12,900 nucleotides of DNA from a virus, in UHGV virus genome UHGV-0200016. One strand, written 5' to 3'. Below the pieces are notes generated by a model that made no database searches, was not told the DNA's origin, and saw nothing but the letters and a program-made list of their open reading frames with translations. A program made the position numbers and the translations under genes. Position 1 is the stretch's first letter. Each line of letters starts with the position of its first letter. Below are positions 1 to 12,900 of the stretch, in pieces.

Positions 1-852
1 GTTTTCAAATTGTTCCGGACTGAGGCCGCCACACCAACTGTGCCGCCGCCACCGATTGTAATCACATTCGATATAATTAAACACCGTTGCCCGCATTATT
101 TCCCGGCTGATAAAGTGTTCTCCATGGATACATTCCACTTTCAGCGAATGAAAGAAGCTTTCCACGCAGGCATTATCGTAGCAGCAACCTTTTGCGCTCA
201 TACTTCCACGCAGATTATGCCGCTTCAGTTGCGCCTGATAATCTGCTGAACAGTACTGGCCTCCACGGTCCGTGTGAACGATAACGTTCCGGGGCCTCTT
301 ACGCCGCCACAGCGCCATCTGCAGGGCATCGCAGGCCAGTTGCGCCGTCATGCGTGGCGACATTGACCAGCCAATAACGGCACGTGACCACAGGTCAATG
401 ACCACTGCCAGATACAGCCAGCCTTCATCTGTACGTAAGTACGTGATGTCTCCTGCCCACTTCTGGTTCGGGCCACTGGCGTAAAAATCCTGCTCCAACA
501 GATTTTCTGACACAGGCAGGCCGTGTGCGCGGTAGCTGACCGGGCTGAACTTCCGGGAGGCCTTTGCCCTCAGTCCCTGACGGCGCAGGCTTGCCGCCAC
601 GGTTTTTACGTTAAAGGGGTAACCCTGAGCACGCAGTTCATCCGTCAGGCGTGGGGCACCGTAACGCTGTTTTGACCGGGTAAAAGCCGCGAGGACAACG
701 CTGTCGCAGTGTTGGCGGAACTGCTGACGCGTGCTTATCCTTGTCCGCCGCTGACACCACGTATACCAGCCGCTGCGGGCCACCCGGAGCACGCGGCACA
801 TTGCTTTGATGCTGAACTCAGCCTGATGTTTTTCAATAAAGACATACTTCAT
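1..852 (-). CDS. insF: IS3 transposase OrfB (InsF), 3'-partial (last few codons and stop lie before position 1)
   Basis: Minus-strand translation from the ATG at 852-850 gives [22 protein letters not shown]... and runs to ...[10 protein letters not shown] at the window edge, matching IS3 InsF as I recall it. It overlaps the orfA stop as expected for the -1 frameshift arrangement. It is absent from the ORF track because no stop lies in the window. Confidence 0.9.
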
Positions 853-1148
853 TTCAGGCGCTTCGCGAAGTATGTCGCGGCCTTTTGGAGGATAGCCAGC
901 TCTTCATCCCGTTCTGCCAGCTGGCGTTTGAGACGTGCAATCTCGGTAGACATCTCCAGTTCACGTTCAGAAGACGTCTGCTGATTTTGCTGTTTACTGC
1001 GCCAGTTGTAGAGCTGTGATTCATACAGGCTGAGTTCACGGGCTGCGGCAGTAACACCGATGCGTTCAGCAAGCTTCAGGGCTTCACTGCGAAATTCAGG
1101 CGAATGCTGTTTACGGGGTTTTTTACTGGTTGATACTGTTTTTGTCAT
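849..1148 (-). CDS. insE: IS3 transposase OrfA (InsE), 99 aa
   Basis: ORF track 849..1157 (minus) gives [34 protein letters not shown]...[15 protein letters not shown]. The canonical protein begins at MTKTVS (ATG at 1148-1146); the track begins at an upstream GTG. HTH-type IS3-family OrfA. Confidence 0.9.
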
Positions 1149-1269
1149 GTGAGTCACCTCTGACTGAGAGTTTACTCACTTAGCCGCGTGTCCACTATTG
1201 CTGGGTAAGATCAGGATTCTATCGATGTGGTCAATGGAAGACGGTTACCAGAGATAGGGCTTATGCATA

Positions 1270-1296
1270 AAAAAATAAGCCCGTGTAAGGGAGATT
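1270..1296. other. attL core (P2 att core, 27 bp)
   Basis: Exact 27-mer AAAAAATAAGCCCGTGTAAGGGAGATT, identical to the copy at 11555-11581, lying 80 bp from the integrase stop. It matches the P2 att core as I recall it. Confidence 0.75.
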
Positions 1297-1375
1297 TAGG
1301 GTGTCACCAGTAGGGGCTTTCAACGGTACAATGCGGGTTTGAGCGGCATAAATTACCACTGAAAGCCCTTAAACG

Positions 1376-2389
1376 TTACTCTACTGTGGACACTGTGTGG
1401 ACACTCTCGACCTCAGTACCACCTCTTAGCGGATTAAGAGAAATGGCGTCCTGAAGGTACTCTGGCGCAAAATGAGCGTAAACCATAGTTTGCTCAATCC
1501 GCGTGTGACCTAGTATCCGTTGTAGCGTGATAATACTTCCTCCATTAATCATGAAATGAGTGGCAAAGCTGTGCCTTAGTGCATGTGTAGCTTGCCCCAT
1601 TGGCAAATCCGGTTTTATTGCTTTCATTGTTCGTCTGAAGCGAGGGTAATCAGCATCAGGGAATAAAAAACCTCGTTTGTTATCCGCGATCATTTTGGCA
1701 ACAGCCTCTGAGATCGGGACGGTGCGTGGTTTGTTTGTTTTCGTTTTAACAAACGTGACGCGGTTATGGATGATATTTTCTGCTTTCAAACGAGCTGCTT
1801 CTCCCCAACGTGCTCCAGTACTCAGGCAAAGAATCGCAATCTTTTTGTTGTCGCCGTCAAGAGCAGCAAGCAGTAAGGCAATTTCTTCCTGCGTGAGATA
1901 GCCTGTGTCTGGTTTTTCCTCCTTAAGCCTTTTTGTCCCTCTGATAGGGTGCTCACCAAAGAATAACTCCGCTTCAATCAGGGCTGTAAACATGCCGCTA
2001 ATACATGTTAAATCACGATTGATACTCGAAGGTTTAATACCCTGACTTCTTCGGGTGGCGCAGTACTGGCTGATAAGCGATTTCGTAATTTGAAATGCGC
2101 ATGGGTCATTCGTTATTTTTGTGAAGATTTCAATTTTCCCAAGATTAGATTTCCCATGCTCTTCGTGTTTACCCTTTAAATCCCACCAGATCTGTGTCAG
2201 CTCCGACAGACGTCGCTTGTCTGTTGGTTTTGATAGCCATTCTTTATTGTGGTGGTTGTACAACGTGTATTTCTCGAAAGCGACAGCTTCGCTTTTCTTA
2301 TCAAACTTCCTACGGATGCGTTTTCCATTACGTCCAGTAGGGCGGATGTCCACTTCATATCGACCATCATCGAGTTTTTTGATTGCCAT
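1376..2389 (-). CDS. int: P2-type tyrosine integrase, 337 aa
   Basis: ORF track 337 aa: MAIKKLDDGRYEVDIRPTGRNGKRIRRKFDKK ... HALRHSFATHFMINGGSIITLQRILGHTRIEQTMVYAHF. It carries the tyrosine-recombinase R..HxxR..Y box and is close to residue-for-residue my recollection of P2 Int. Confidence 0.95.
   Translation of the reverse strand: MAIKKLDDGRYEVDIRPTGRNGKRIRRKFDKKSEAVAFEKYTLYNHHNKEWLSKPTDKRRLSELTQIWWDLKGKHEEHGKSNLGKIEIFTKITNDPCAFQITKSLISQYCATRRSQGIKPSSINRDLTCISGMFTALIEAELFFGEHPIRGTKRLKEEKPDTGYLTQEEIALLLAALDGDNKKIAILCLSTGARWGEAARLKAENIIHNRVTFVKTKTNKPRTVPISEAVAKMIADNKRGFLFPDADYPRFRRTMKAIKPDLPMGQATHALRHSFATHFMINGGSIITLQRILGHTRIEQTMVYAHFAPEYLQDAISLNPLRGGTEVESVHTVSTVE
1385..1404. promoter_or_regulatory. 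Tandem TGTGGACAC direct repeats; probable Int arm-type binding sites (P arm), inside the 3' end of int
   Basis: tgtggacac at 1385-1393 and 1396-1404, 11 bp apart. A matching pair with the same spacing lies on the other arm at 11496-11514. P2 Int arm sites are, from memory, direct repeats of roughly this consensus. Confidence 0.5.
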
Positions 2390-2504: not shown

Positions 2505-2804
2505 TTAACCAGTCTTTTGACCGGAGTGGGGCGACGTTGTTTCGTTTTGCCCAAAGTGTGCGAGAGCGGGCGCAATTTGCCCGGACTCAGGAGCGATCTG
2601 ATTGGTCATGAACCATAAAGTGTATTTGGTGAATTGTGGGGTCTGCAGGATGTTCATCATGACATCTGTTGGAGGTGTTGAACGACCACTTTCATAGTAA
2701 CTCAGCGTGCCATACGGAACCCCTGTTAAATCAGCAAGTTGTTGTCTGCTCAAATACTCTGATTTTCGCATTAAGACTATCTTCTCGCTTATCGTGTTTG
2801 ACAT
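2505..2804 (-). CDS. C: P2 immunity repressor C, 99 aa
   Basis: ORF track 99 aa: MSNTISEKIVLMRKSEYLSRQQLADLTGVPYGTLSYYESGRSTPPTDVMMNILQ... It has an HTH, sits between int and cox and is divergent from cox, as in P2. Confidence 0.9.
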   Translation of the reverse strand: MSNTISEKIVLMRKSEYLSRQQLADLTGVPYGTLSYYESGRSTPPTDVMMNILQTPQFTKYTLWFMTNQIAPESGQIAPALAHFGQNETTSPHSGQKTG

Positions 2805-2918: not shown

Positions 2919-3527
2919 ATGAGCAAGCAAGTAACACTCATGACTGATGCGATTCCTTATCAGGAGTTCGCAAAACTAATAGGAAAATCGACAGGAGCGG
3001 TTCTCGGCGCGCGTCATATTCATATCACCAGAACGACGGACTGGCGCATTGTTCCGAAAGTTCCGGTCGTGGAGCCTTTAACTTTAAAAAGCGGCATCGC
3101 CGCGCCTCGGAGTCCTGTCAATAACTGTGGAAAGCTCACCGGTGGTGATACTTCGTTACCGGCTCACACACCTTCTGAGCACGCCGCAGCAGTGCTTAAT
3201 CTGGTTGATGACGGTGTTATTGAATGGAATGAACCGGAGGTCGTGAGGGCGCTCAGGGGGGCATTAAAACACGACCTGAGAACACCAAACCGTCAGCAAA
3301 GAAACGGAAGCCCGTTAAAACCACATGAAATTGCACCATCGGCCAGACTGACCCGGTCGGAAAGAATGCAAATTACCCGTATCCGCGTTGACCTTGCTCA
3401 GAACGGTATCAGGCCGCAGCGATGGGAGCTTGAGGCGCTGGCGCGTGGCGCGACCGTAAATTATTACGGGAAATCTTTCAATTATCAGGTCGCTGATGAG
3501 TGGCCTGGATTTTTGTTACCCATTTGA
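2919..3527 (+). CDS. cox N-terminus (about 28 codons) fused in frame to an unrelated 174-codon reading frame, possibly the 3' part of an early/replication gene; probable deletion product
   Basis: ORF track 202 aa. The first 28 residues, MSKQVTLMTDAIPYQEFAKLIGKSTGAV, match P2 Cox (a 91-aa protein). From about nt 3003 the sequence departs completely (LGARHIHITRTTDW...) and continues to 3527. SD agagga lies upstream of the ATG. Confidence 0.6.
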   Translation: MSKQVTLMTDAIPYQEFAKLIGKSTGAVLGARHIHITRTTDWRIVPKVPVVEPLTLKSGIAAPRSPVNNCGKLTGGDTSLPAHTPSEHAAAVLNLVDDGVIEWNEPEVVRALRGALKHDLRTPNRQQRNGSPLKPHEIAPSARLTRSERMQITRIRVDLAQNGIRPQRWELEALARGATVNYYGKSFNYQVADEWPGFLLPI

Positions 3528-3786
3528 GTAAAAATGCAGCGTGATTTTATATGCCTTTGAATGGATTATGCGAAGCGCCTCTAAGGCAGATGAGGAGCAA
3601 TAGCATGCTGAAGTAGAAGGCTAAATTGTATTGAATCGCTAGCATGTAATTTAAAGCAGCTATTTGATTCGAGTCATAAAAGAGCATCTATTTCGGCTAA
3701 TAAAACCATTGCGAGTGACCTTTTGTCGAAGCATAATTCATCTCGAGCGAAGTCTTGCTAGTCTTTCATCGGAATGATGACAGGCG

Positions 3787-3817
3787 CAAAAAAACCACCC
3801 TGGCAGGTGGTTTTTTT
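3787..3817. terminator. Bidirectional rho-independent terminator
   Basis: aaaaaaaccaccctggcaggtggttttttt: a GC-rich hairpin (ccaccctg/caggtgg) flanked by an A-run on the 5' side and a T-run on the 3' side, so it is terminator-like on both strands. Confidence 0.6.
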
Positions 3818-3829
3818 GTTTGAAGCATA

Positions 3830-3943
3830 CTAAAGAATAATACTTACATGGATATTACTGACGTTTACTGACAAACCACTTGGACTACCATATGGATAGC
3901 CAAAGAGGGCCAGAACGAGAATGCAGTAATAGCACTTCTTCAT
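3830..3943 (-). CDS. Hypothetical small hydrophobic protein, 37 aa (below ORF-track cutoff)
   Basis: Minus-strand ATG at 3943 preceded by a strong SD (caggaggagat-ATG). Translation is MKKCYYCILVLALFGYPYGSPSGLSVNVSNIHVSIIL, with stop at 3832-3830 immediately followed by the terminator at 3787-3817. Coding status is unproven. Confidence 0.3.
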   Translation of the reverse strand: MKKCYYCILVLALFGYPYGSPSGLSVNVSNIHVSIIL

Positions 3944-4518
3944 ATCTCCTCCTGTAAGCAGAGGGCAATTTCCGCCGATATATGCGCTTCTAAGGCGGAG
4001 TTACTATTTAGCGAAGTCTTGCCCTGAAATAATGCTCTGTTTAAACGCAAAGTGATCTGGCATATCACCGAACAGAGAGCCTGAACAACACAACATATAG
4101 TATGTCGTTGTTTCTGGTTGCATTTTATGTTGTGTAATCCTGGTTTTGCATCAAGGATGTTTGAGCTTTTTTTGATATAGCTCAAAGTAAAAAGCAGAGA
4201 CTACGGATGATAAGGTATTGAAAGCAATGTAAATTTTTTAAAGTTATTGGCGGCTAAAAAATGCACGGTTTCAATATGGTGGACTTAAATAAGCAATTAA
4301 AAAAGTCATAAATATCACTAAAATCATGGTGTTACGTTTTTTTTGTGGGAGCTGCGGTGACGCTTAAGTTGATTTGTCATTAAATAAGCCGTGCATGCAA
4401 CAAGTGAATGTTTTTGCATGCGTCGGGGATGCCCGTTCCGGCTGCTTGCGGTCAGAGCTGGTGCGGATCCATAGTATCTATGCAACTGCATTAAAACCGC
4501 CACATGAAGCGGGCGGGC

Positions 4519-4537
4519 GAGGCGGGGAAAGCACTGC
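4519..4537. other. P2-type cos site (19-nt cohesive-end sequence)
   Basis: ggcgaggcggggaaagcac matches the P2/186 cohesive-end sequence as I recall it. It sits in a GC-rich island of about 165 bp (roughly 4380-4545) between AT-rich segments. Confidence 0.6.
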
Positions 4538-4694
4538 GCGCAAAATGTTCTTGAAATATTTGTGACATAAGCTAAGACACAAAATGATTGAAGGGCAGAG
4601 CAAATCCTACAGTCCTATGCTATTGTCTCATGTAATGCAGATAAGTTGAAAATTATCTTAAAATATAAGAGTAAAGACATTAAAAGGATTGGTT

Positions 4695-6956
4695 ATGAAT
4701 AATAACTCTAAGTTATTAAGCTCTATCTCGGTTGAATCTGATTTCGAGAACCTTATAAAACTATATGCAAATGAGTTATTTGGTGGTGAAACATATCTGA
4801 TCGGTGGTCCTTGGGATAATGGAAAGGATTTGGTAATAAAAAAGGGGAATAGAGAGTTAAAGCAAGCTGTACAAATATCTATTCAAGAGAAAAATATTGA
4901 AAGTAAGATTGCTCAAGATATTAAAAAAGTGGCGAAATTGGTTGATGATCATTATTACCCGCCTGTATTATATTTTTTTTGGAGTCATTCAATATCTGAG
5001 CATTTATTGGATAAGATAAGAACAAATGCTCTTAAGGAAGATTTGATTAGATTGGAGTTTTATGATGCCAAACGGATCTCTCAAGATATTACAGATAAAT
5101 ACCCAGGGTTATTGAATTACTTAATAAAAGATATACATAAGATAAGTTCTAATACTGAAGATGCAATTAACTTGCAACAAAGAGCATTTTATGAATATTT
5201 ATTGTTAAGCAAAGATAGTGCTAATTTAAAAAATGAAATAATAAAAGCTAGTATTATGTCTAATTTATATGATGGCGGGAAGTCTGCTGATGATATTCTA
5301 GAGAATCTAAAAGGTGTTAGTCTTACAAAACGTAGTTTACAGGGTAGACTGCAAAACCTAATTCATCAAAATAAAATTAGATTGAATGATGGTATATATA
5401 GCCTGTCACCAGAGGAAATTAAAAAGCTTGAGAATATAAATCTCCGTGAAATTGTCAGAAAAGAAGAGTTGTTATCAGTAATAAATAATGAGTTGCCCAG
5501 AAATACAAGTAAGAATCTGGCTGTTCAAGTTGTTGATTTAATAATAAAGGCTTATGAAGAATCAATAAATGTCCAATTAACAGAAAGTAAATTTGAGCCT
5601 CCAAAATTACAGATATTCAAAACTATAGTACATAATTTAAAGGTGTTGATACGGCAGGAATATGATTTGGATGATGAGTCTTCGGATGCTTTAGCAAAAA
5701 AGCTAATGGAGTTGGCTGGTCAAAATGACTATTTATCCGAGCATTGCTCTGCTAAATTATGTGTGAATCTTTTAAGTGATCGGAAATTAGAGAAATATAT
5801 TGAAAATAAAAATTTTTATATCTACTTTGATGCGCCTGTTCTTATTCCATATTTGATAACTCTTATGTTTGGAGATTTTGAGCTTTTTGATAAGTCGATT
5901 AAAAATATAAATTTACTGAGAGAGTGCATAAATCCCCTCAAAAATAAACATCTGAGAGTTTCTAATGAACATTTTGAAGAAACTGCAAGGCACTACTCTG
6001 AAGCTGAAAAATTAAGTCAGTTTGTAACTGAAGATTTAATTAGTCAACTTGGTGAGTCGAAAAATGTATACTTTAATGTTTATATGCGGTGGAAAAACAA
6101 ACAGCCTAAACGTACAGATTTTTACGATTTTACTTATGCTTTTCTAGGGTTGGATAAAGATGATATTTATGCGGGGTATAAGCATGACACATTTGCGCAA
6201 TGCATTCATAATTTACTAGCGTCAGCAAATATTGTTGTAATTGATAATAAAGACTCGGTGTCACAAGACTTTGTATTTAAAATAAAGCAAAAACTTAAAA
6301 GGGATTTGAATTCTTCACGTCCCGTTCGAGCCATAGAAAATGATGTTATATGTGCTGCAACTTTGAGTGATGAAACCCTACATCTTGATTCCAATGGTTA
6401 CTTCAGTACTCCCATGCTAATAACGCTTGATAGATCTCAATATCTATTGAGAAGCATAGTAAGAAATGAAAGGAGACATGCTGAATGGTTGGTTTATACC
6501 CCTCAAAGAGCAATTGAACGTCTTTCCTTGGTGGGTTTAAAAATATCATCGGAATCGTTAAAGGATGGTGTTTTAGCAACCATATCAGAAGAATATTTCT
6601 TTAAAGAAAGTTCCAGTAGTTTGATTGATACTTTGGCTATTATCATTGGAGATAATCAAGCAAGGCAAGGAGATGTTATTAGGCTTGCATCGCTTTTAAA
6701 AAGAAAGGTCAATGAGGAATCTATTGAGAATTCAGAAATTGATATTGAACACTATAATAACATTAGTTATGTGCTTCTTTTCATTCATCGTGAATTTAAA
6801 TCTGAATTTTCAAATATAATAAAAATTTTTGCTGAGGATAGTAGGCGAGATAAACTGGTTGAAGTTTTGTTATCCACTATTCAAGGAGTTTTTGATGAGA
6901 GTAAAAAGGAAATCTTGCGCTCAAATATAGGACGGTTGTTGGCTGAAATGGGATGA
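4695..6956 (+). CDS. Hypothetical protein of about 753 aa with an N-terminal restriction-endonuclease-like (Mrr-type) motif; candidate anti-phage defence protein
   Basis: ORF track 4689..6956 (755 aa from a TTG). I prefer the ATG at 4695, which has SD aagga 6 nt upstream. The gene is strongly AT-rich and Lys/Asn/Ile-rich, unlike the flanking P2 genes. Residues about 25-100 (FENLIKLYANELFGGETYLIGGPWDNGKDLVIKKGNRELKQAVQIS...PVLYFFWSHSIS) resemble the Mrr catalytic-core pattern. A hairpin terminator follows at 6973-7005. Confidence 0.85.
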   Translation: MNNNSKLLSSISVESDFENLIKLYANELFGGETYLIGGPWDNGKDLVIKKGNRELKQAVQISIQEKNIESKIAQDIKKVAKLVDDHYYPPVLYFFWSHSISEHLLDKIRTNALKEDLIRLEFYDAKRISQDITDKYPGLLNYLIKDIHKISSNTEDAINLQQRAFYEYLLLSKDSANLKNEIIKASIMSNLYDGGKSADDILENLKGVSLTKRSLQGRLQNLIHQNKIRLNDGIYSLSPEEIKKLENINLREIVRKEELLSVINNELPRNTSKNLAVQVVDLIIKAYEESINVQLTESKFEPPKLQIFKTIVHNLKVLIRQEYDLDDESSDALAKKLMELAGQNDYLSEHCSAKLCVNLLSDRKLEKYIENKNFYIYFDAPVLIPYLITLMFGDFELFDKSIKNINLLRECINPLKNKHLRVSNEHFEETARHYSEAEKLSQFVTEDLISQLGESKNVYFNVYMRWKNKQPKRTDFYDFTYAFLGLDKDDIYAGYKHDTFAQCIHNLLASANIVVIDNKDSVSQDFVFKIKQKLKRDLNSSRPVRAIENDVICAATLSDETLHLDSNGYFSTPMLITLDRSQYLLRSIVRNERRHAEWLVYTPQRAIERLSLVGLKISSESLKDGVLATISEEYFFKESSSSLIDTLAIIIGDNQARQGDVIRLASLLKRKVNEESIENSEIDIEHYNNISYVLLFIHREFKSEFSNIIKIFAEDSRRDKLVEVLLSTIQGVFDESKKEILRSNIGRLLAEMG

Positions 6957-7047: not shown

Positions 7048-8082
7048 TTAGGTATCGCAAGTATCTAGTGAGTAGTTTTTAAAGCGGATGACCTCCTGAC
7101 CGAGCCAGCCGTTTATCTCGCGGATCCTGTCCTGTAACGGGATAAGCTCATTGCGGACAAAGACCTTTGCCACTTTCTCAATATCGCCCAGTGACCCGAC
7201 GTTCTCCGGCTTGCCGCCCATCAACTGAAAGGGGATGCGGTGCGCGTCCAGTAGGTCAGCGGCGCTGGCTTTTTTGATATTAAAAAAATCGTCCTTCGTT
7301 GCGACTTCACTGAGCGGGATAATTTTAATGCCGTCGGCTTTCCCCTGTGGGGCATAGAGAAACAGATTTTTAAAGTTGTTGCGGCCTTTCGACTTCACCA
7401 TGTTTTCGCGGAGCATTTCGATATCGTTGCGATCCTGCACGGCATCAGTGACGTACATGATGTATCCGGCATGTGCGCCGTTTTCGTAATACTTGCGGCG
7501 GAACAGCGTGGCCGACTCATTCAGCCAGGCAGAGTTAAGGGCGCTGAGATATTCCGGCAGGCCGTACAACTCCTGATTAATATCCGGCTCCAGCAGGTGA
7601 AACACGGAGCCGGGCGCGAAGGCTGTCGGTTCGTTGAAGGACGGCACCCACCAGTAAACATCCTCTTCCACCCCACGGCGGGTATATTTTGCCGGTGAGG
7701 TTTCCAGTCTGATGACCTTACCGGTGGTGCTGTAACGCTTTTCCAGAAACGCATTACCAAACACCAGAAAATCCAGCACAAAGCGGCTGAAATCCTGTTG
7801 TGAAAGCCACGGATGCGGGATAAATGTCGAGGCCAGAATATTACGTTTGACGTAAATCGGTGAGCTGTGATGTACGGCAGCACGCAGGCTTTTTGCCAGA
7901 CCGGTAAAGCTGACCGGTGGCTCATACCATCTGCCGTTACTGATGCACTCGACGTAATCCAGAATGTCACGGCGGTCGAGTACCGGCACCGGCTCACCAA
8001 AGGTGAATGCCTCCATTTTCGGGGCGCTGGCGGTCATTGTTTTTGCCGCAGGTTGCGGTGTTTTCCCTTTTTTCTTGCTCAT
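7048..8082 (-). CDS. Q: P2 portal (capsid portal) protein Q, 344 aa
   Basis: ORF track 344 aa: MSKKKGKTPQPAAKTMTASAPKMEAFTFGEPVPVLDRRDILDYVECISNGRWYEPP... It matches my recollection of P2 gpQ in sequence and length, and its start overlaps the stop of the upstream P fragment (TGATG). Confidence 0.9.
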   Translation of the reverse strand: MSKKKGKTPQPAAKTMTASAPKMEAFTFGEPVPVLDRRDILDYVECISNGRWYEPPVSFTGLAKSLRAAVHHSSPIYVKRNILASTFIPHPWLSQQDFSRFVLDFLVFGNAFLEKRYSTTGKVIRLETSPAKYTRRGVEEDVYWWVPSFNEPTAFAPGSVFHLLEPDINQELYGLPEYLSALNSAWLNESATLFRRKYYENGAHAGYIMYVTDAVQDRNDIEMLRENMVKSKGRNNFKNLFLYAPQGKADGIKIIPLSEVATKDDFFNIKKASAADLLDAHRIPFQLMGGKPENVGSLGDIEKVAKVFVRNELIPLQDRIREINGWLGQEVIRFKNYSLDTCDT

Positions 8083-8360
8083 CAGTAAAACTCCAGAATG
8101 GTGGATGTCAGCGGGGTGCTGATACCGGCGGTGAGTGGCTCATTTAACAGGGCGTGCATGGTCGCCCAGGCGAGGTCGGCGTGGCTGGCTTCCTCGCTGC
8201 GGCTGGCCTCATAGGTGGCGCTGCGTCCGCTGCTGGTCATGGTCTTGCGGATAGCCATAAACGAGCTGGTGATGTCGGTGGCGCTGACGTCGTATTCCAG
8301 ACAGCCACGGCGGATAACGTCTTTTGCCTTGAGCACCATTGCGGTTTTCATTTCCGGCGT
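8082..8360 (-). pseudogene. P: 3' fragment of terminase ATPase gene P (about 90 C-terminal codons); the 5' part is deleted
   Basis: A minus-strand open frame ends at 8082 (...LTAGISTPLTSTILEFY) with its stop overlapping the Q start, as for P2 P-Q. P is about 590 aa in P2, so only the 3' end is present. Assignment rests on synteny and coupling, not on confirmed homology. The upper boundary is approximate. Confidence 0.5.
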
Positions 8361-9245: not shown

Positions 9246-9849
9246 TTCGCGACTGCTGCCGACCGGCTCATCACCGCTTGAGGTCGCCGCCGCAAAAGCC
9301 TGTGCGGAAATTGAAAAAACGCCGGTCAGTATTCGTGAGTTGTGGAACCCGGACACCTGCCCGGCAAATCTGCTGCCGTGGCTGGCGTGGTCATTTTCGG
9401 TTGACCGCTGGGATGATAAGTGGCCGGAAGCGACAAAACGCGCTGTTATCCGCGATGCGTATTTCATTCACTGCCATAAGGGCACTATTGGTGCGATTCG
9501 CCGTGTGGTGGAGCCACTCGGCTATCTGATTGAGGTGAGGGAGTGGTGGCAGCTCAACGAGGAGCCGGGGACGTTCCGTATCGTTGTCGGCGTGCTTGAG
9601 CAGGGTATTACCGAGGAAATGTATCAGGAGCTGGAGCGCCTCGTTGCTGATGCAAAACCGGCAAGCCGCCATCTGACGGGACTGGCTATCAGTTTAAGTA
9701 CAACCGGCAACATTTTTGCCGGTGCGGGATGCTATCACGGCGACGCCCTGACGGTTTATCCCTACACCCCGGAGGCCATTATTGTCGGAGGGGATTATTT
9801 CCCGGCCTCGGCCATTCATTTAATTGATAACCTGAGAGTAAACGCATGA
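9238..9849 (+). CDS. I: Baseplate protein I (P2 gpI-like), 203 aa
   Basis: ORF track 203 aa: MSDSRLLPTGSSPLEVAAAKACAEIEKTPVSIRELWNPDTCPANLLPWLAWSF... The ATG overlaps the J stop (ATGA) and the stop overlaps the next gene's start, giving the J-I-H order of P2. Confidence 0.85.
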   Translation: MSDSRLLPTGSSPLEVAAAKACAEIEKTPVSIRELWNPDTCPANLLPWLAWSFSVDRWDDKWPEATKRAVIRDAYFIHCHKGTIGAIRRVVEPLGYLIEVREWWQLNEEPGTFRIVVGVLEQGITEEMYQELERLVADAKPASRHLTGLAISLSTTGNIFAGAGCYHGDALTVYPYTPEAIIVGGDYFPASAIHLIDNLRVNA

Positions 9850-11153
9850 CAGTGAAATACTACGCCATTCTGACTAATCAGGGCGCAGCACGGCTGGCTA
9901 ACGCGACGATGCTCGGCAGTAAGCTGAATCTGACGCAAATGGCCGTTGGTGATGCGAATGGTGTATTACCGACACCAGACCCGGCACAGACAAAACTGAT
10001 TAACCAGAAACGCATTGCACCGCTGAATATTCTGAGCGTTGACCCTAACAATCAGAGCCAGATTATTGCGGAGCAAATTATCCCTGAAAACGAGGGAGGA
10101 TTCTGGATCCGTGAGATTGGGCTTTATGATGATGAAGGCGTACTCATTGCGGTGGCGAACTGCCCGGAAACGTACAAACCGCAGTTGCAGGAAGGCAGTG
10201 GTCGTACCCAGACTATCCGCATGATTCTGGTTGTCACGAATACCGAAGCTATTACGCTGAAAATCGACCCGTCGGTGGTACTGGCGACCCGTAAATACGT
10301 GGATGATGAAGTCCTGGAATTAAGGCTGTATGTGGATGAACAGATGAGAAACCACATTGCCGCACAGGATCCTCATACCCAGTATGCACAGAAACATAAT
10401 CCGACATTTACCGGAGAACCAAAAGCGCCGACGCCTGCCGCAGGAAATAACACCACGCGGATTGCGACCACTGCGTTTGTACAGGCTGCTATTACCGCTC
10501 TGATTAACGGCGCGCCAGCCACGCTGGACACACTGAAAGAAATTGCCGCGGCCATTAACAATGACCCGAAATTCAGCACCACCATTAACAATGCGCTGTC
10601 AGGTAAGCAGCCACTGGATGAGACGCTGACTCATTTGAGTGGAAAGGATGTTGGAGCCTACACCGGCGTAACGGCAAAGTGGTTACACACCAAAGACCCG
10701 AAGCCGCAAAAGCAGAAGGTAAAACTGAAACGCAAAAAGAAAGAGAAACACCTGCGCGCACTGGAGCACCCGAAAGCGAAACCGGTCAGGCAGAAGAAAG
10801 CGCCAAAAGTACCGGAAGCGCGCGAAGGTGAATACATGGCCGGTGAGGCTGACAACGTTTTTGCCCTGACCACGGTATATGCCACGAAAGCACAGGCCAT
10901 GCGTGCTGCTCAGGCGAAGTGGGATAAACTGCAACGGGGCGTTGCGGAGTTCTCCATCATCCTGGCTACCGGTCGTGCAGATATTTACACGGAAACACCG
11001 GTCAGAGTGTCAGGCTTTAAGCGCGTCATAGACGAGCAGGACTGGACAATCACTAAGGTGACACATTTTCTGAATAATAGCGGCTTCACGACGTCCTTGG
11101 AGCTTGAGGTCAGGCTTTCTGATGTGGAGTACGAAACAGAAGATGATGAGTGA
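9846..11153 (+). CDS. Chimeric ORF: tail-fibre H-like N-terminal domain (about 270 aa) fused to the C-terminal part of tail protein D; deletion product
   Basis: ORF track 435 aa. The N-terminus (MTVKYYAILTNQGAARLA...GGFWIREIGLYDDEGVLIAVANCPETYKPQLQEGSGRTQT...) has the P2 gpH-type tail-fibre N-terminal signature. The C-terminus (...PVRVSGFKRVIDEQDWTITKVTHFLNNSGFTTSLELEVRLSDVEYETEDDE) is the gpD end that immediately precedes ogr in P2. A Lys-rich linker lies between. G, Z/fun, FI, FII, E, T, U and most of D are absent. Confidence 0.65.
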   Translation: MTVKYYAILTNQGAARLANATMLGSKLNLTQMAVGDANGVLPTPDPAQTKLINQKRIAPLNILSVDPNNQSQIIAEQIIPENEGGFWIREIGLYDDEGVLIAVANCPETYKPQLQEGSGRTQTIRMILVVTNTEAITLKIDPSVVLATRKYVDDEVLELRLYVDEQMRNHIAAQDPHTQYAQKHNPTFTGEPKAPTPAAGNNTTRIATTAFVQAAITALINGAPATLDTLKEIAAAINNDPKFSTTINNALSGKQPLDETLTHLSGKDVGAYTGVTAKWLHTKDPKPQKQKVKLKRKKKEKHLRALEHPKAKPVRQKKAPKVPEAREGEYMAGEADNVFALTTVYATKAQAMRAAQAKWDKLQRGVAEFSIILATGRADIYTETPVRVSGFKRVIDEQDWTITKVTHFLNNSGFTTSLELEVRLSDVEYETEDDE

Positions 11154-11234: not shown

Positions 11235-11453
11235 ATGTTTCATTGTCCTTTATGCCAGCATGCCGCACATGCGCGTACAAGCCGCTATATCACTGACACG
11301 ACAAAAGAGCGTTATCACCAGTGCCAGAACGTGAATTGCAGCGCCACGTTCATCACTTATGAGTCGGTACAGCGATACATCGTGAAGCCGGGAGAAGTCC
11401 ACGCCGTGAGGCCGCACCCGTTGCCGTCAGGGCAGCAAATTATGTGGATGTAA
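11235..11453 (+). CDS. ogr: P2 late-gene transcriptional activator Ogr (zinc-finger), 72 aa
   Basis: MFHCPLCQHAAHARTSRYITDTTKERYHQCQNVNCSATFITYESVQRYIVKPGEVHAVRPHPLPSGQQIMWM with the C-x2-C...C-x4-C zinc finger. The ORF track begins 21 codons upstream (11172), but the canonical start is the ATG at 11235. Confidence 0.9.
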   Translation: MFHCPLCQHAAHARTSRYITDTTKERYHQCQNVNCSATFITYESVQRYIVKPGEVHAVRPHPLPSGQQIMWM

Positions 11454-11464
11454 TTACAAACAGA

Positions 11465-11490
11465 AAGCCCCTCAGTCGAGGGGCTTTTTT
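11465..11490 (+). terminator. Rho-independent terminator of ogr
   Basis: aagcccctc-agtc-gaggggctt followed by tttt, 12 bp after the ogr stop. Confidence 0.7.
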
Positions 11491-11495
11491 GTCGA

Positions 11496-11514
11496 TGTGG
11501 TCAATGTGTGGACG
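11496..11514. promoter_or_regulatory. Direct repeats TGTGGTCA / TGTGGACG; probable Int arm-type binding sites (P' arm)
   Basis: tgtggtca at 11496-11503 and tgtggacg at 11507-11514, 11 bp apart, mirroring the pair at 1385-1404 on the int-proximal arm. Confidence 0.45.
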
Positions 11515-11554
11515 TGACCAGAAATAAATCCTTTTATTTCAATTTGTTGTACGT

Positions 11555-11581
11555 AAAAAATAAGCCCGTGTAAGGGAGATT
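11555..11581. other. attR core (P2 att core, 27 bp)
   Basis: Exact copy of AAAAAATAAGCCCGTGTAAGGGAGATT, followed by AT-rich non-phage DNA leading into the convergent host gene. Confidence 0.75.
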
Positions 11582-11725
11582 ACACAGGCTAAGGAGGTGG
11601 TTCCTGGTACAGCTAGCATTTTATGGGTTATGTTTTTCAGCGAAACGGATGATAACCTTAATAAATGCAGCTGTATGTGATCGGTTTCTAAGAATTTTCC
11701 ATCCGGGAAAAATAATCGAAATTAA

Positions 11726-12900
11726 TCACTTACCGTGTGGGTTACGCGTGGTTTCCCCGGAGAAATTACGCATCAGCAGAGCGTAATTGAGCTCAAGATC
11801 CTGCGGGACCGGGAGCCACACAGTATAACCATCGCCTGGTGCGACCGGCATCGCTTCACCTTTGGCGTTTTCCATGTGCTCAAGGGTAAAGTTAATGTTG
11901 CCTTGCGGCGTCATCAGCTCAAGGCTGTCGCCAACGGAGAATTTATTTTTCACCGCTACCGCCGCGAGGTCCCCCTTGCGCTCACCGGTAAACTCACCAA
12001 CAAACTGCTGGCGGTCAGAAACTGAATAACCGTATTCGTAGTTCTGATAATCGTCGTGAGTATGACGACGCAGGAAACCTTCGGTATAGCCACGATGCGC
12101 CAGACCTTCCAGAGTTTCCAGCAGGCTGGTATCGAACGGTTTGCCCGCAGCGGCGTCATCGATAGCTTTACGGTAAACCTGTGCGGTGCGTGCGCAATAG
12201 TAGAAAGATTTAGTACGGCCTTCGATTTTCAGCGAATGCACGCCCATTTTGGTCAGGCGTTCTACATGGGCGATGGCGCGCAGATCTTTCGAGTTCATGA
12301 TGTAAGTGCCGTGCTCATCTTCAAACGCGGTCATATACTCGCCCGGACGCTGGGCTTCTTCGATCATAAACACTTTGTCGGTTGGCGCGCCGATACCCAG
12401 CGTCGGCTCAACATTTTGCACCGGAATCGGCTCGTACTTGTGTACGATGTTGCCAACGTCATCTTCTTTCCCTTCCTGGACGTTGTACTCCCAGCGGCAG
12501 GCGTTGGTGCAGGTACCCTGGTTCGGATCGCGCTTGTTGATATAGCCAGAGAGCAGGCAGCGACCGGAGTAGGCCATGCACAGTGCGCCGTGAACGAAGA
12601 TCTCGATCTCCATATCCGGCACCTGATTGCGGATCTCTTCAATCTCTTCCAGCGACAGCTCGCGAGAGAGGATCACGCGGGTCAGGCCCATTTGCTGCCA
12701 GAATTTCACCGTCGCCCAGTTTACGGCGTTAGCCTGCACCGAGAGGTGGATCGGCATTTCAGGGAAGTGCTCACGCACCAGCATAATCAGCCCTGGATCG
12801 GACATAATCAGCGCATCCGGCCCCATTTCCACCACCGGTTTCAGGTCACGGATAAAGGTTTTCAGCTTGGCGTTGTGCGGTGCAATGTTGACCACGACAT
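11726..12900 (-). CDS. yegQ: U32-family peptidase-like protein (YegQ/TrhP-like), 5'-partial (N-terminus beyond window end)
   Basis: ORF track 389 aa: ...EIFVHGALCMAYSGRCLLSGYINKRDPNQGTCTNACRW... contains the U32 peptidase signature (E-x-F-x2-G-[SA]-[LIVM]-C-x4-G-x-C-x-[LIVM]-S). It is convergent with ogr, as yegQ is with ogrK in E. coli K-12. Gene symbol is from recollection and synteny. Confidence 0.8.
   Translation of the reverse strand, partial: VVVNIAPHNAKLKTFIRDLKPVVEMGPDALIMSDPGLIMLVREHFPEMPIHLSVQANAVNWATVKFWQQMGLTRVILSRELSLEEIEEIRNQVPDMEIEIFVHGALCMAYSGRCLLSGYINKRDPNQGTCTNACRWEYNVQEGKEDDVGNIVHKYEPIPVQNVEPTLGIGAPTDKVFMIEEAQRPGEYMTAFEDEHGTYIMNSKDLRAIAHVERLTKMGVHSLKIEGRTKSFYYCARTAQVYRKAIDDAAAGKPFDTSLLETLEGLAHRGYTEGFLRRHTHDDYQNYEYGYSVSDRQQFVGEFTGERKGDLAAVAVKNKFSVGDSLELMTPQGNINFTLEHMENAKGEAMPVAPGDGYTVWLPVPQDLELNYALLMRNFSGETTRNPHGK

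Follow-up and report, generated by a model that had tools for sequence, protein, structure and literature searches.

The 56 nucleotides lying between an IS3 element and the attL core of a defective P2-like prophage are the normal, species-wide host B arm of the site where P2 integrates in Escherichia coli, at the cyaR 3' end. It is likely, in our judgement, that this B arm is at the same time the attR end of a fossil P2-type element that became fixed in E. coli; the neighbouring IS3 is unrelated to it. The window discussed here is the whole stretch of DNA that was analysed, 12,900 nucleotides in length; a first-pass annotation of it had read the same nucleotides as a possible trace of an older, tandem P2-like prophage that IS3 had truncated.

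In P2-type integration, the integrase Int attaches both to core-type sites and to the arm-type repeats of P and P', with IHF bending the P arm. The integrase recombines the 27-bp core of attP with an identical core in the cyaR terminator, which generates attL and attR, and the copy brought by the phage restores the terminator. We take attL (B-core-P') to be 1214-1410 and attR (P-core-cyaR) to be 11492-11643 in the window, and the E. coli attachment site at the cyaR 3' end presumably corresponds to locI of the P2 literature.

Attachment-site sequences in the window

The window has two copies of the 15-mer TCGATGTGGTCAATG and no more, at 1222-1236 and 11492-11506, each on the plus strand. Even with two mismatches allowed, about 0.03 matches would be expected by chance, and two or more copies appeared in none of 200 shuffles. 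This repeat, in the attL flank and again after the ogr terminator, had been noticed in the first-pass annotation, which located the left copy correctly and put the right copy 3 nt off, at 11495-11509; the single arm-site-like repeat that it saw within the 15-mer is there as well (TGTGGTCA, 1226-1233). Its measurements of the flank also hold: IS3 ends at 1213, 56 nt from the core, and the 27-bp core AAAAAATAAGCCCGTGTAAGGGAGATT is common to both ends (1270-1296 and 11555-11581). The distance from 15-mer to core is 48 nt at the left copy and 63 nt at the right.

Two of its statements on the arm need amending. The sequences were said to diverge between 15-mer and core, but a local alignment of the flank with the phage P arm continues past the 15-mer and reaches 30/36 identities with a z-score of 10.9 (flank TCGATGTGGTCAATG-GAAGACGGTTACCAGAGATA, phage arm TCGATGTGGTCAATGTGTGGAC-GTGACCAGAAATA); the similarity beyond the 15-mer alone has p ~0.006, and the flank shows a 16-nt gap against the phage arm. 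The arm was also called P', yet in the P2 record AF063097 the label P arm belongs to the Int site beside ogr (24293-24320, tcgatgtggtcaatgtgtggacgtgacc), and P' to the one beside int. The 15-mer is the initial 15 nt of this P-arm Int footprint. The remaining features of the record (terminator 24265-24288, IHF 24324-24357, core 24356-24383, Cox 24399-24472, Int P' arm 24470-24496) could be carried over to the window, which is 99.3% identical to P2 across the att region (Table 1).

Table 1. Features of the window and the evidence on which each was placed
Feature	Position	Strand	Basis
IS3, cut by the window start	1-1213	-	RefSeq IS3 family transposase in L006 (1218KP) and L008 (AB104); junctions read
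GGA, right copy of the 3-bp IS3 target duplication	1214-1216	.	junction compared with empty site
Host B arm of the P2 attachment site in E. coli, at the right end of the yegR island; probable decayed P-arm homologue	1214-1269	+	5394/5426 genomes, empty sites, P-arm alignment
Left 15-mer copy with arm-type Int repeat TGTGGTCA (1226-1233)	1222-1236	+	sequence, P2 record
27-bp att core at attL	1270-1296	+	sequence match
P' arm of the resident prophage; TGTGGACA repeats at 1385-1392 and 1396-1403	1297-1410	+	sequence; P2 Cox 24399-24472, Int P' arm 24470-24496
int, P2-type tyrosine integrase	1376-2389	-	Pfam Int_N and Phage_integrase
Repressor C	2505-2804		
cox'-A' fusion: first 29 aa of Cox and C-terminus of the replication protein	2919-3527		
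755-aa ORF	4689-6956	+	no Pfam and no PADLOC match
Portal	7048-8082		
Terminase fragment abutting baseplate J	8082-8351		
Fusion of tail-fibre N-terminus and gpD C-terminus	9846-11153		
ogr	11235-11453	+	Pfam Ogr_Delta; annotated ogrK in L006 (1218KP)
ogr terminator hairpin, then T run	11467-11490	+	sequence; P2 terminator 24265-24288
P-arm Int binding site (predicted)	11492-11519	+	sequence, P2 record; equivalent to P2 24293-24320
P-arm Int repeat TGTGGTCA	11496-11503	+	
P-arm Int repeat TGTGGACG	11507-11514	+	
P-arm IHF site, by equivalence to P2 24324-24357	11523-11556	+	window 99.3% identical to P2
27-bp att core at attR; 3' terminator half of cyaR	11555-11581	+	sequence match, Rfam
cyaR (RyeE) sRNA gene	11558-11643	-	Rfam RF00112, 100.7 bits, E = 1.2e-19
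yegQ/trhP, host gene on the B' side, running off the window	11726-12900	-	annotation in L006 (1218KP) and L004 (strain 219)

The resident prophage is defective, with about 10.3 kb between its cores; it contains deletion fusions and also has J and I. Roughly 1.1 kb without a long ORF (3528-4688) precedes the 755-aa ORF, which lies between the replication remnant and the portal gene, a position that we take to be the tin/old cargo hotspot of P2-like phages; it may be an uncharacterised defence cargo.

Occurrence of the flank in E. coli

Flank and core together (1214-1296) form a segment that is present as a single copy in 5394 of 5426 complete E. coli genomes, about 99%. The empty site of strain 219 (L004 4001-4083) carries the flank too, its 15-mer equally far from the core, and reads in order yegS, yegR, about 100 nt containing a hairpin, the 56-nt flank with its 15-mer, core, cyaR and yegQ. 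The first-pass annotation had itself pointed to an empty attB with the 15-mer at this position as the observation that would mark it as host sequence, and its view of the flank as a trace of an earlier P2-like prophage in this lysogen is contradicted by an identical flank in nearly the whole species. What survives of its proposal is that the flank is truly homologous to a P2-type arm and probably descends from an earlier integration at the same core, an event that is ancient and whose product is fixed throughout the species. In annotations, 1214-1269 is best treated as the usual host attB flank, with no second prophage in this strain.

A comparison with the ogrK junction of K-12 had also been suggested. 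A genome of the K-12 type has the order yegR, flank, first 18 nt of the core, D' (213 nt), ogrK, terminator, full P arm, core, cyaR, so that a decayed P2-type remnant does sit at the same core, but to the right of the shared flank. Because it was inserted right of the same flank, the K-12 remnant is a separate, younger element at the same core. The remnant (yegZ/D' - ogrK - attR) was reportedly described by Barreiro and Haggard-Ljungquist in J Bacteriol in 1992. It resembles the relic in the flank in being a decayed P2-type sequence at the same cyaR-terminator core, in the same orientation and with a P arm adjoining the intact core. Unlike the relic it keeps D', ogr, the terminator and the full P arm, is strain-specific and is joined to nucleotide 18 of the attL core, whereas the relic, free of phage genes, is shared by about 99% of E. 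coli and is itself the attB flank.

The yegR island and its boundaries

One genome per species was scanned with a cyaR pattern, which gave 21 loci. The core lies about 90 nt from the yegS start codon, directly preceded by the homologous yegS-side flank, in seven of these genomes: E. whittamii, Escherichia sp. E1V33, Silvania, Kluyvera sp., Kosakonia, Enterobacter sp. EA-1 and WN89Y. Neither yegR nor the 15-mer is present at the cyaR locus of these seven, and the uninterrupted arrangement of yegS and core occurs in 0 of the 5426 E. coli genomes. The contig labelled Vagococcus sp. WN89Y has an enterobacterial yegS-cyaR-yegQ locus and is probably a contaminant or mislabelled.

Alignment of E. coli and E. 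whittamii holds through ...GATGAAAGTCG and runs on into a 27-mer resembling the core, AAAAAGTCAGTTCAAGTATGGAGGATT (strain 219, L004 3262-3288), after which strain 219 has 768 unrelated bases (L004 3289-4056) and then the intact core and cyaR. The GC content of this island is 38.7%, below the 49.8% of yegS and the 54% of yegQ. Parsimony over about seven genomes suggests that the island was inserted, rather than precisely lost in the outgroups.

The core-like 27-mer matches the core at 18/27 positions and is the best core match on either strand of the 405-nt spacer between yegS and yegR. A shuffle over the whole region gives p = 0.012; since the left copy lies exactly at the breakpoint of homology between E. 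coli and the outgroups, a fixed-position probability is also used, and the binomial value is ~9e-5. The same island is present in a sister species (L021, labelled E. coli SCPM-O-B-8794, with yegS 86% identical), where the left copy, AAACCGTCAGTCTGCATAAGAGAGATT, matches the CCTGCG-type core of other Escherichia at 20/27 positions (p = 6e-4). We infer that the common ancestor of the two left copies matched the core at 24/27 positions, if it kept the core residue wherever either copy does.

The left boundary also has a phage-like continuation. The 24 nt after the degenerate core, GTTACCACCAGGAGCTTGCAATGG, agree with the P' side of P2, GTCACCAGTAGGGGCTTTCAACGG, at 18/24 positions (p = 0.001-0.0035), and their distance from the core end differs from that in P2 by just 1 nt. 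The order inside the island is degenerate core, P'-like stub, AT-rich DNA with yegR, hairpin, decayed P arm and intact core. No core remnant is found between yegR and the P-arm stub; the best match in the spacer is the left boundary itself.

Phage genes were sought in the island by blastn (word size 7) and tblastx against the prophage of the window, and nothing was found beyond the arm and the core. A tblastn search with YegR and a blastn search with the island against phage records returned only two records, both of which contain host DNA. One of the two is ON470606 (L001, 'Escherichia phage vB_EcoM-720R8, partial genome'), which carries gatR, yegS and yegR. YegR is a lipoprotein nearly confined to Escherichia and Shigella, and its family in the protein database is PF27694. 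The few distant homologues lie in an IS-rich island or in a chromosomal spacer, in contexts that are not phage-like. YegR does match phrog_21109 (E = 9.5e-71), which was considered as a sign of phage origin and discounted, as the family probably reflects host flanks included in prophage predictions, like ON470606.

In strain FDAARGOS_1077 (L032 1950-2020) most of yegR has been deleted between two copies of CTGGTTGTGCT, and the relic flank and the 15-mer have been kept. The yegR island is still decaying.

Variation and condition of the relic arm

The relic shares with the P arm of P2 attP (AF063097) the first 15 nt of the Int footprint, including TGTGGTCA, and an ACCAGA.ATA motif; it differs in its degenerate second repeat, in the absence, in this haplotype, of 16 nt of the IHF region and in having a host hairpin in place of the ogr terminator. 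The first arm-type repeat is preserved at 8/8 positions and the second at 5/8 (GGAAGACG against TGTGGACG), so a pair of repeats is not retained. The IHF region, with a 48-nt spacing against 63 in P2 and the 16-nt gap, does not offer an IHF site at the P2 spacing. Since one of the two repeats is kept and 16 nt of the IHF region are lost, the relic B arm is probably inert as an Int/IHF arm. Upstream of the flank, empty sites have the hairpin AGCACGATGCC...GGCATCGTGCT, which lacks a T run, and then yegR; no ogr terminator is present there.

Among 97 sampled flanks there are 16 haplotypes. The 30 nt around the 15-mer are invariant in all 97, and the adjacent stretch is polymorphic and rich in indels, some haplotypes matching P2 better (GTGACCAG) than others. 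Rare long haplotypes (L031, L037, L094) fill most of the 16-nt gap, leaving about 4 nt (...GGTGACCAGGGATCAATCCGTATTTACAGCTTATGCAT), and keep the AATCC..ATTT of the P2 P arm; their similarity to the P arm with the 15-mer excluded has z = 6.5, a level reached in 0 of 4000 shuffles. The arm of L021 is the reverse of that of E. coli, with an intact IHF part and a diverged Int-site part, and simple orthology between the two arms is therefore in doubt.

To find a living phage whose arm is of the E. coli type, the 56-nt flank was compared by blastn with 50,697 phage records (E <= 10), and only the same two records containing host DNA were returned. A scan of IMG/VR with GTGGTCAATGGAAGACGG gave 116 contigs, all of them attL junctions with the host hairpin upstream, and the ogr terminator in 0/116.

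A probable fossil P2-type element as the source of the B arm

These observations are best explained, we think, by a single old integration. Some ancestor of E. coli would have acquired a P2-type element at the cyaR core, and this would then have decayed to the 768-bp yegR island, flanked by a degenerate left core and an intact right core. That intact right-hand core, the old attR, would now serve as attB for modern P2-like phages; the present defective 10.3-kb prophage and, independently, the D'-ogrK remnant of K-12 would have entered there, and IS3 would have inserted last, into the relic. In favour of this reading are a core repeat at either end of the island, relatives in which the site is uninterrupted, P'-like and P-like ends in the correct orientation and an atypical GC content. 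The island itself holds only yegR and no phage gene or fragment. Two further observations count against the proposal: the similarity on the P' side is modest, and a perfect 15/15 run within a relic that is otherwise about 70-75% identical is unexpected if neutral decay was evenly spread (roughly 1% per position, as an estimate). The perfect 15-mer and the 30 invariant nucleotides around it suggest either later gene conversion from incoming prophages or constraint.

If the fossil reading is right, today's attB is an old attR, which might help explain why the E. coli core is identical to that of attP at 27/27 positions. A single sRNA terminator would have been used in succession by the fossil island, by K-12-type remnants or the present prophage, and the site then by IS3. 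All that is left of the ancient P2-type integration would seem to be the spacer between yegS and cyaR, orphan gene yegR included. The finding adds one more remnant, an older one, to a kind and a site already known; it refines the history of the P2/CyaR locus and brings no new mechanism. No paper treating yegR, the flank or the cyaR attachment site as a fossil was found in a literature search, outside which lay a 1992 paper on the P2 attachment site.

The competing account that fares best divides this history into two events, a yegR island brought by some unrelated mobile element or insertion at the cyaR terminator, and a P-arm stub that came later as a remnant of the K-12 kind, by repeated recombination or gene conversion with the P arms of incoming prophages, or as host DNA captured by a phage. 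It would account for an island without phage genes, for yegR homologues in IS-rich or chromosomal contexts, for a perfect 15-mer beside decayed and polymorphic sequence with certain haplotypes nearer to P2 (GTGACCAG), and for the different halves of the arm conserved in E. coli and L021. We nevertheless regard it as unlikely. The left end of the island is P2-like as well, with its degenerate core and a P' match in register, as fits one element with two ends, and there is no additional core remnant between yegR and the stub. The capture of the flank by a phage from its host was rejected: over the stretch that runs from the ogr terminator through the IHF site, the P arm is common to many P2-like phages (of Escherichia, Yersinia and Klebsiella, and Wphi) that diverge from the arm of the window before the core, and is for that reason native to the phage.

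One could go further than the fossil reading and propose that the host 15-mer repeat was kept since it still binds Int, biasing integration or excision, and that the attB donated by the old phage includes the 3' half of the CyaR terminator. The 15/15 identity to P2, the invariance in 97 flanks and the polymorphic neighbouring stretch are the grounds for this, and we hold it to be a rather doubtful extension; were it true, an old prophage would have primed the site for its relatives.

Chance or convergence between host flank and arm, which the first-pass annotation had offered as its alternative, is very improbable. Intergenic DNA rich in A and T does yield short matches, and the two sequences are of unequal length, but two 15-mer copies arose in none of the shuffles, homology extends beyond the 15-mer in the long haplotypes, and the left end of the island is collinear with the P' side and carries a degenerate core, a likeness far beyond coincidence.

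cyaR as an integration site

The 3' ends of sRNA and tRNA genes are used as integration sites at which the phage copy regenerates the gene end, for example at the sdsR locus in Salmonella (PMC3333887). The cyaR site shares with such sites a core that is the terminator half of the gene and a downstream region that varies by genus and is often foreign DNA; it differs from pristine sites of this kind in that what the phage uses today seems to have been inherited as the attR of an earlier element. The DNA beyond the cyaR core differs in nearly every genus (Enterobacter, Kluyvera, Leclercia and Mangrovibacter, over eight loci), and on this sequence comparison integration seems to favour the cyaR 3' end generally, as a hotspot. 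E. bugandensis has a terminator and after it TTTTTGTCGAT, an arrangement reminiscent of the ogr terminator with the P arm beginning behind it.

The terminator half of the core comes in three variants: CCCGTG in E. coli, P2, Kluyvera and E. hormaechei, CCTGCG in E. whittamii, E1V33, E. albertii and others, and CCTGTG in L021. The variants swap a G-U wobble within the terminator stem. The left copy of L021 (about 1685-1711) matches the CCTGCG type at 20/27 positions, against 18/27, as would be expected of an attL that keeps the host half. This hints that the terminator half of cyaR in E. coli may be phage-derived.

In E. albertii NBRC 107761 (L015 4990-7560) the P arm by the cyaR core is truncated in its Int-site part and abuts an apparent IS fragment, with ORFs that by eye resemble cdtA and cdtB about 1-2.5 kb beyond the truncated arm. 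This comes close to the situation that the first-pass annotation had imagined, an arm cut by an IS, in another species.

The IS3 insertion

Strain 1218KP (L006), which was taken as the source genome, matches the window at 100% over 1100-1400, across the junctions of IS3, flank and int (window x corresponds to L006 x + 11901). Its IS3 is a full-length element of 1258 bp (L006 11857-13114) with GGA on either side, and the junction reads ...gaaggagga|IS3|ggattct, where the empty site reads gaaggaggattct. Beyond the outer end of IS3, where the first-pass annotation had advised looking, the hairpin and yegR are intact and the host sequence is contiguous. As yegR and the hairpin are intact on the far side, nothing was deleted by IS3, and the suggestion that it had removed the rest of an older prophage falls away. 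A recent, different P2-like prophage lying in tandem to the left, reduced to its arm by an IS3 that entered 56 bp from the core and removed all else, is therefore hardly credible: the 15-mer does match the phage arm and K-12 does have P2 remnants at the locus, but the identical flank is found in nearly all of the species and at empty attB sites, and the IS3 has a clean 3-bp duplication, contiguous host sequence and an intact yegR beyond. The IS3 came in later by simple transposition, landing in the relic 8 nt upstream of the 15-mer, and should be annotated as an unrelated insertion.

The spacer between yegR and cyaR has been entered by IS3 at least twice independently, at a GGA site and at a CAC site. 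The latter is found in the MEI008 group (L007 2856-4115), where IS3 lies elsewhere in the spacer, inside the hairpin, with a CAC duplication and an empty attB. Isolate AB104 (L008) has a second copy of IS3 within int, and a K-12-type genome (L003 488-1650) has one in a DeoR-family regulator gene adjoining gatD. The surroundings of yegR and cyaR may be a local hotspot for IS3.
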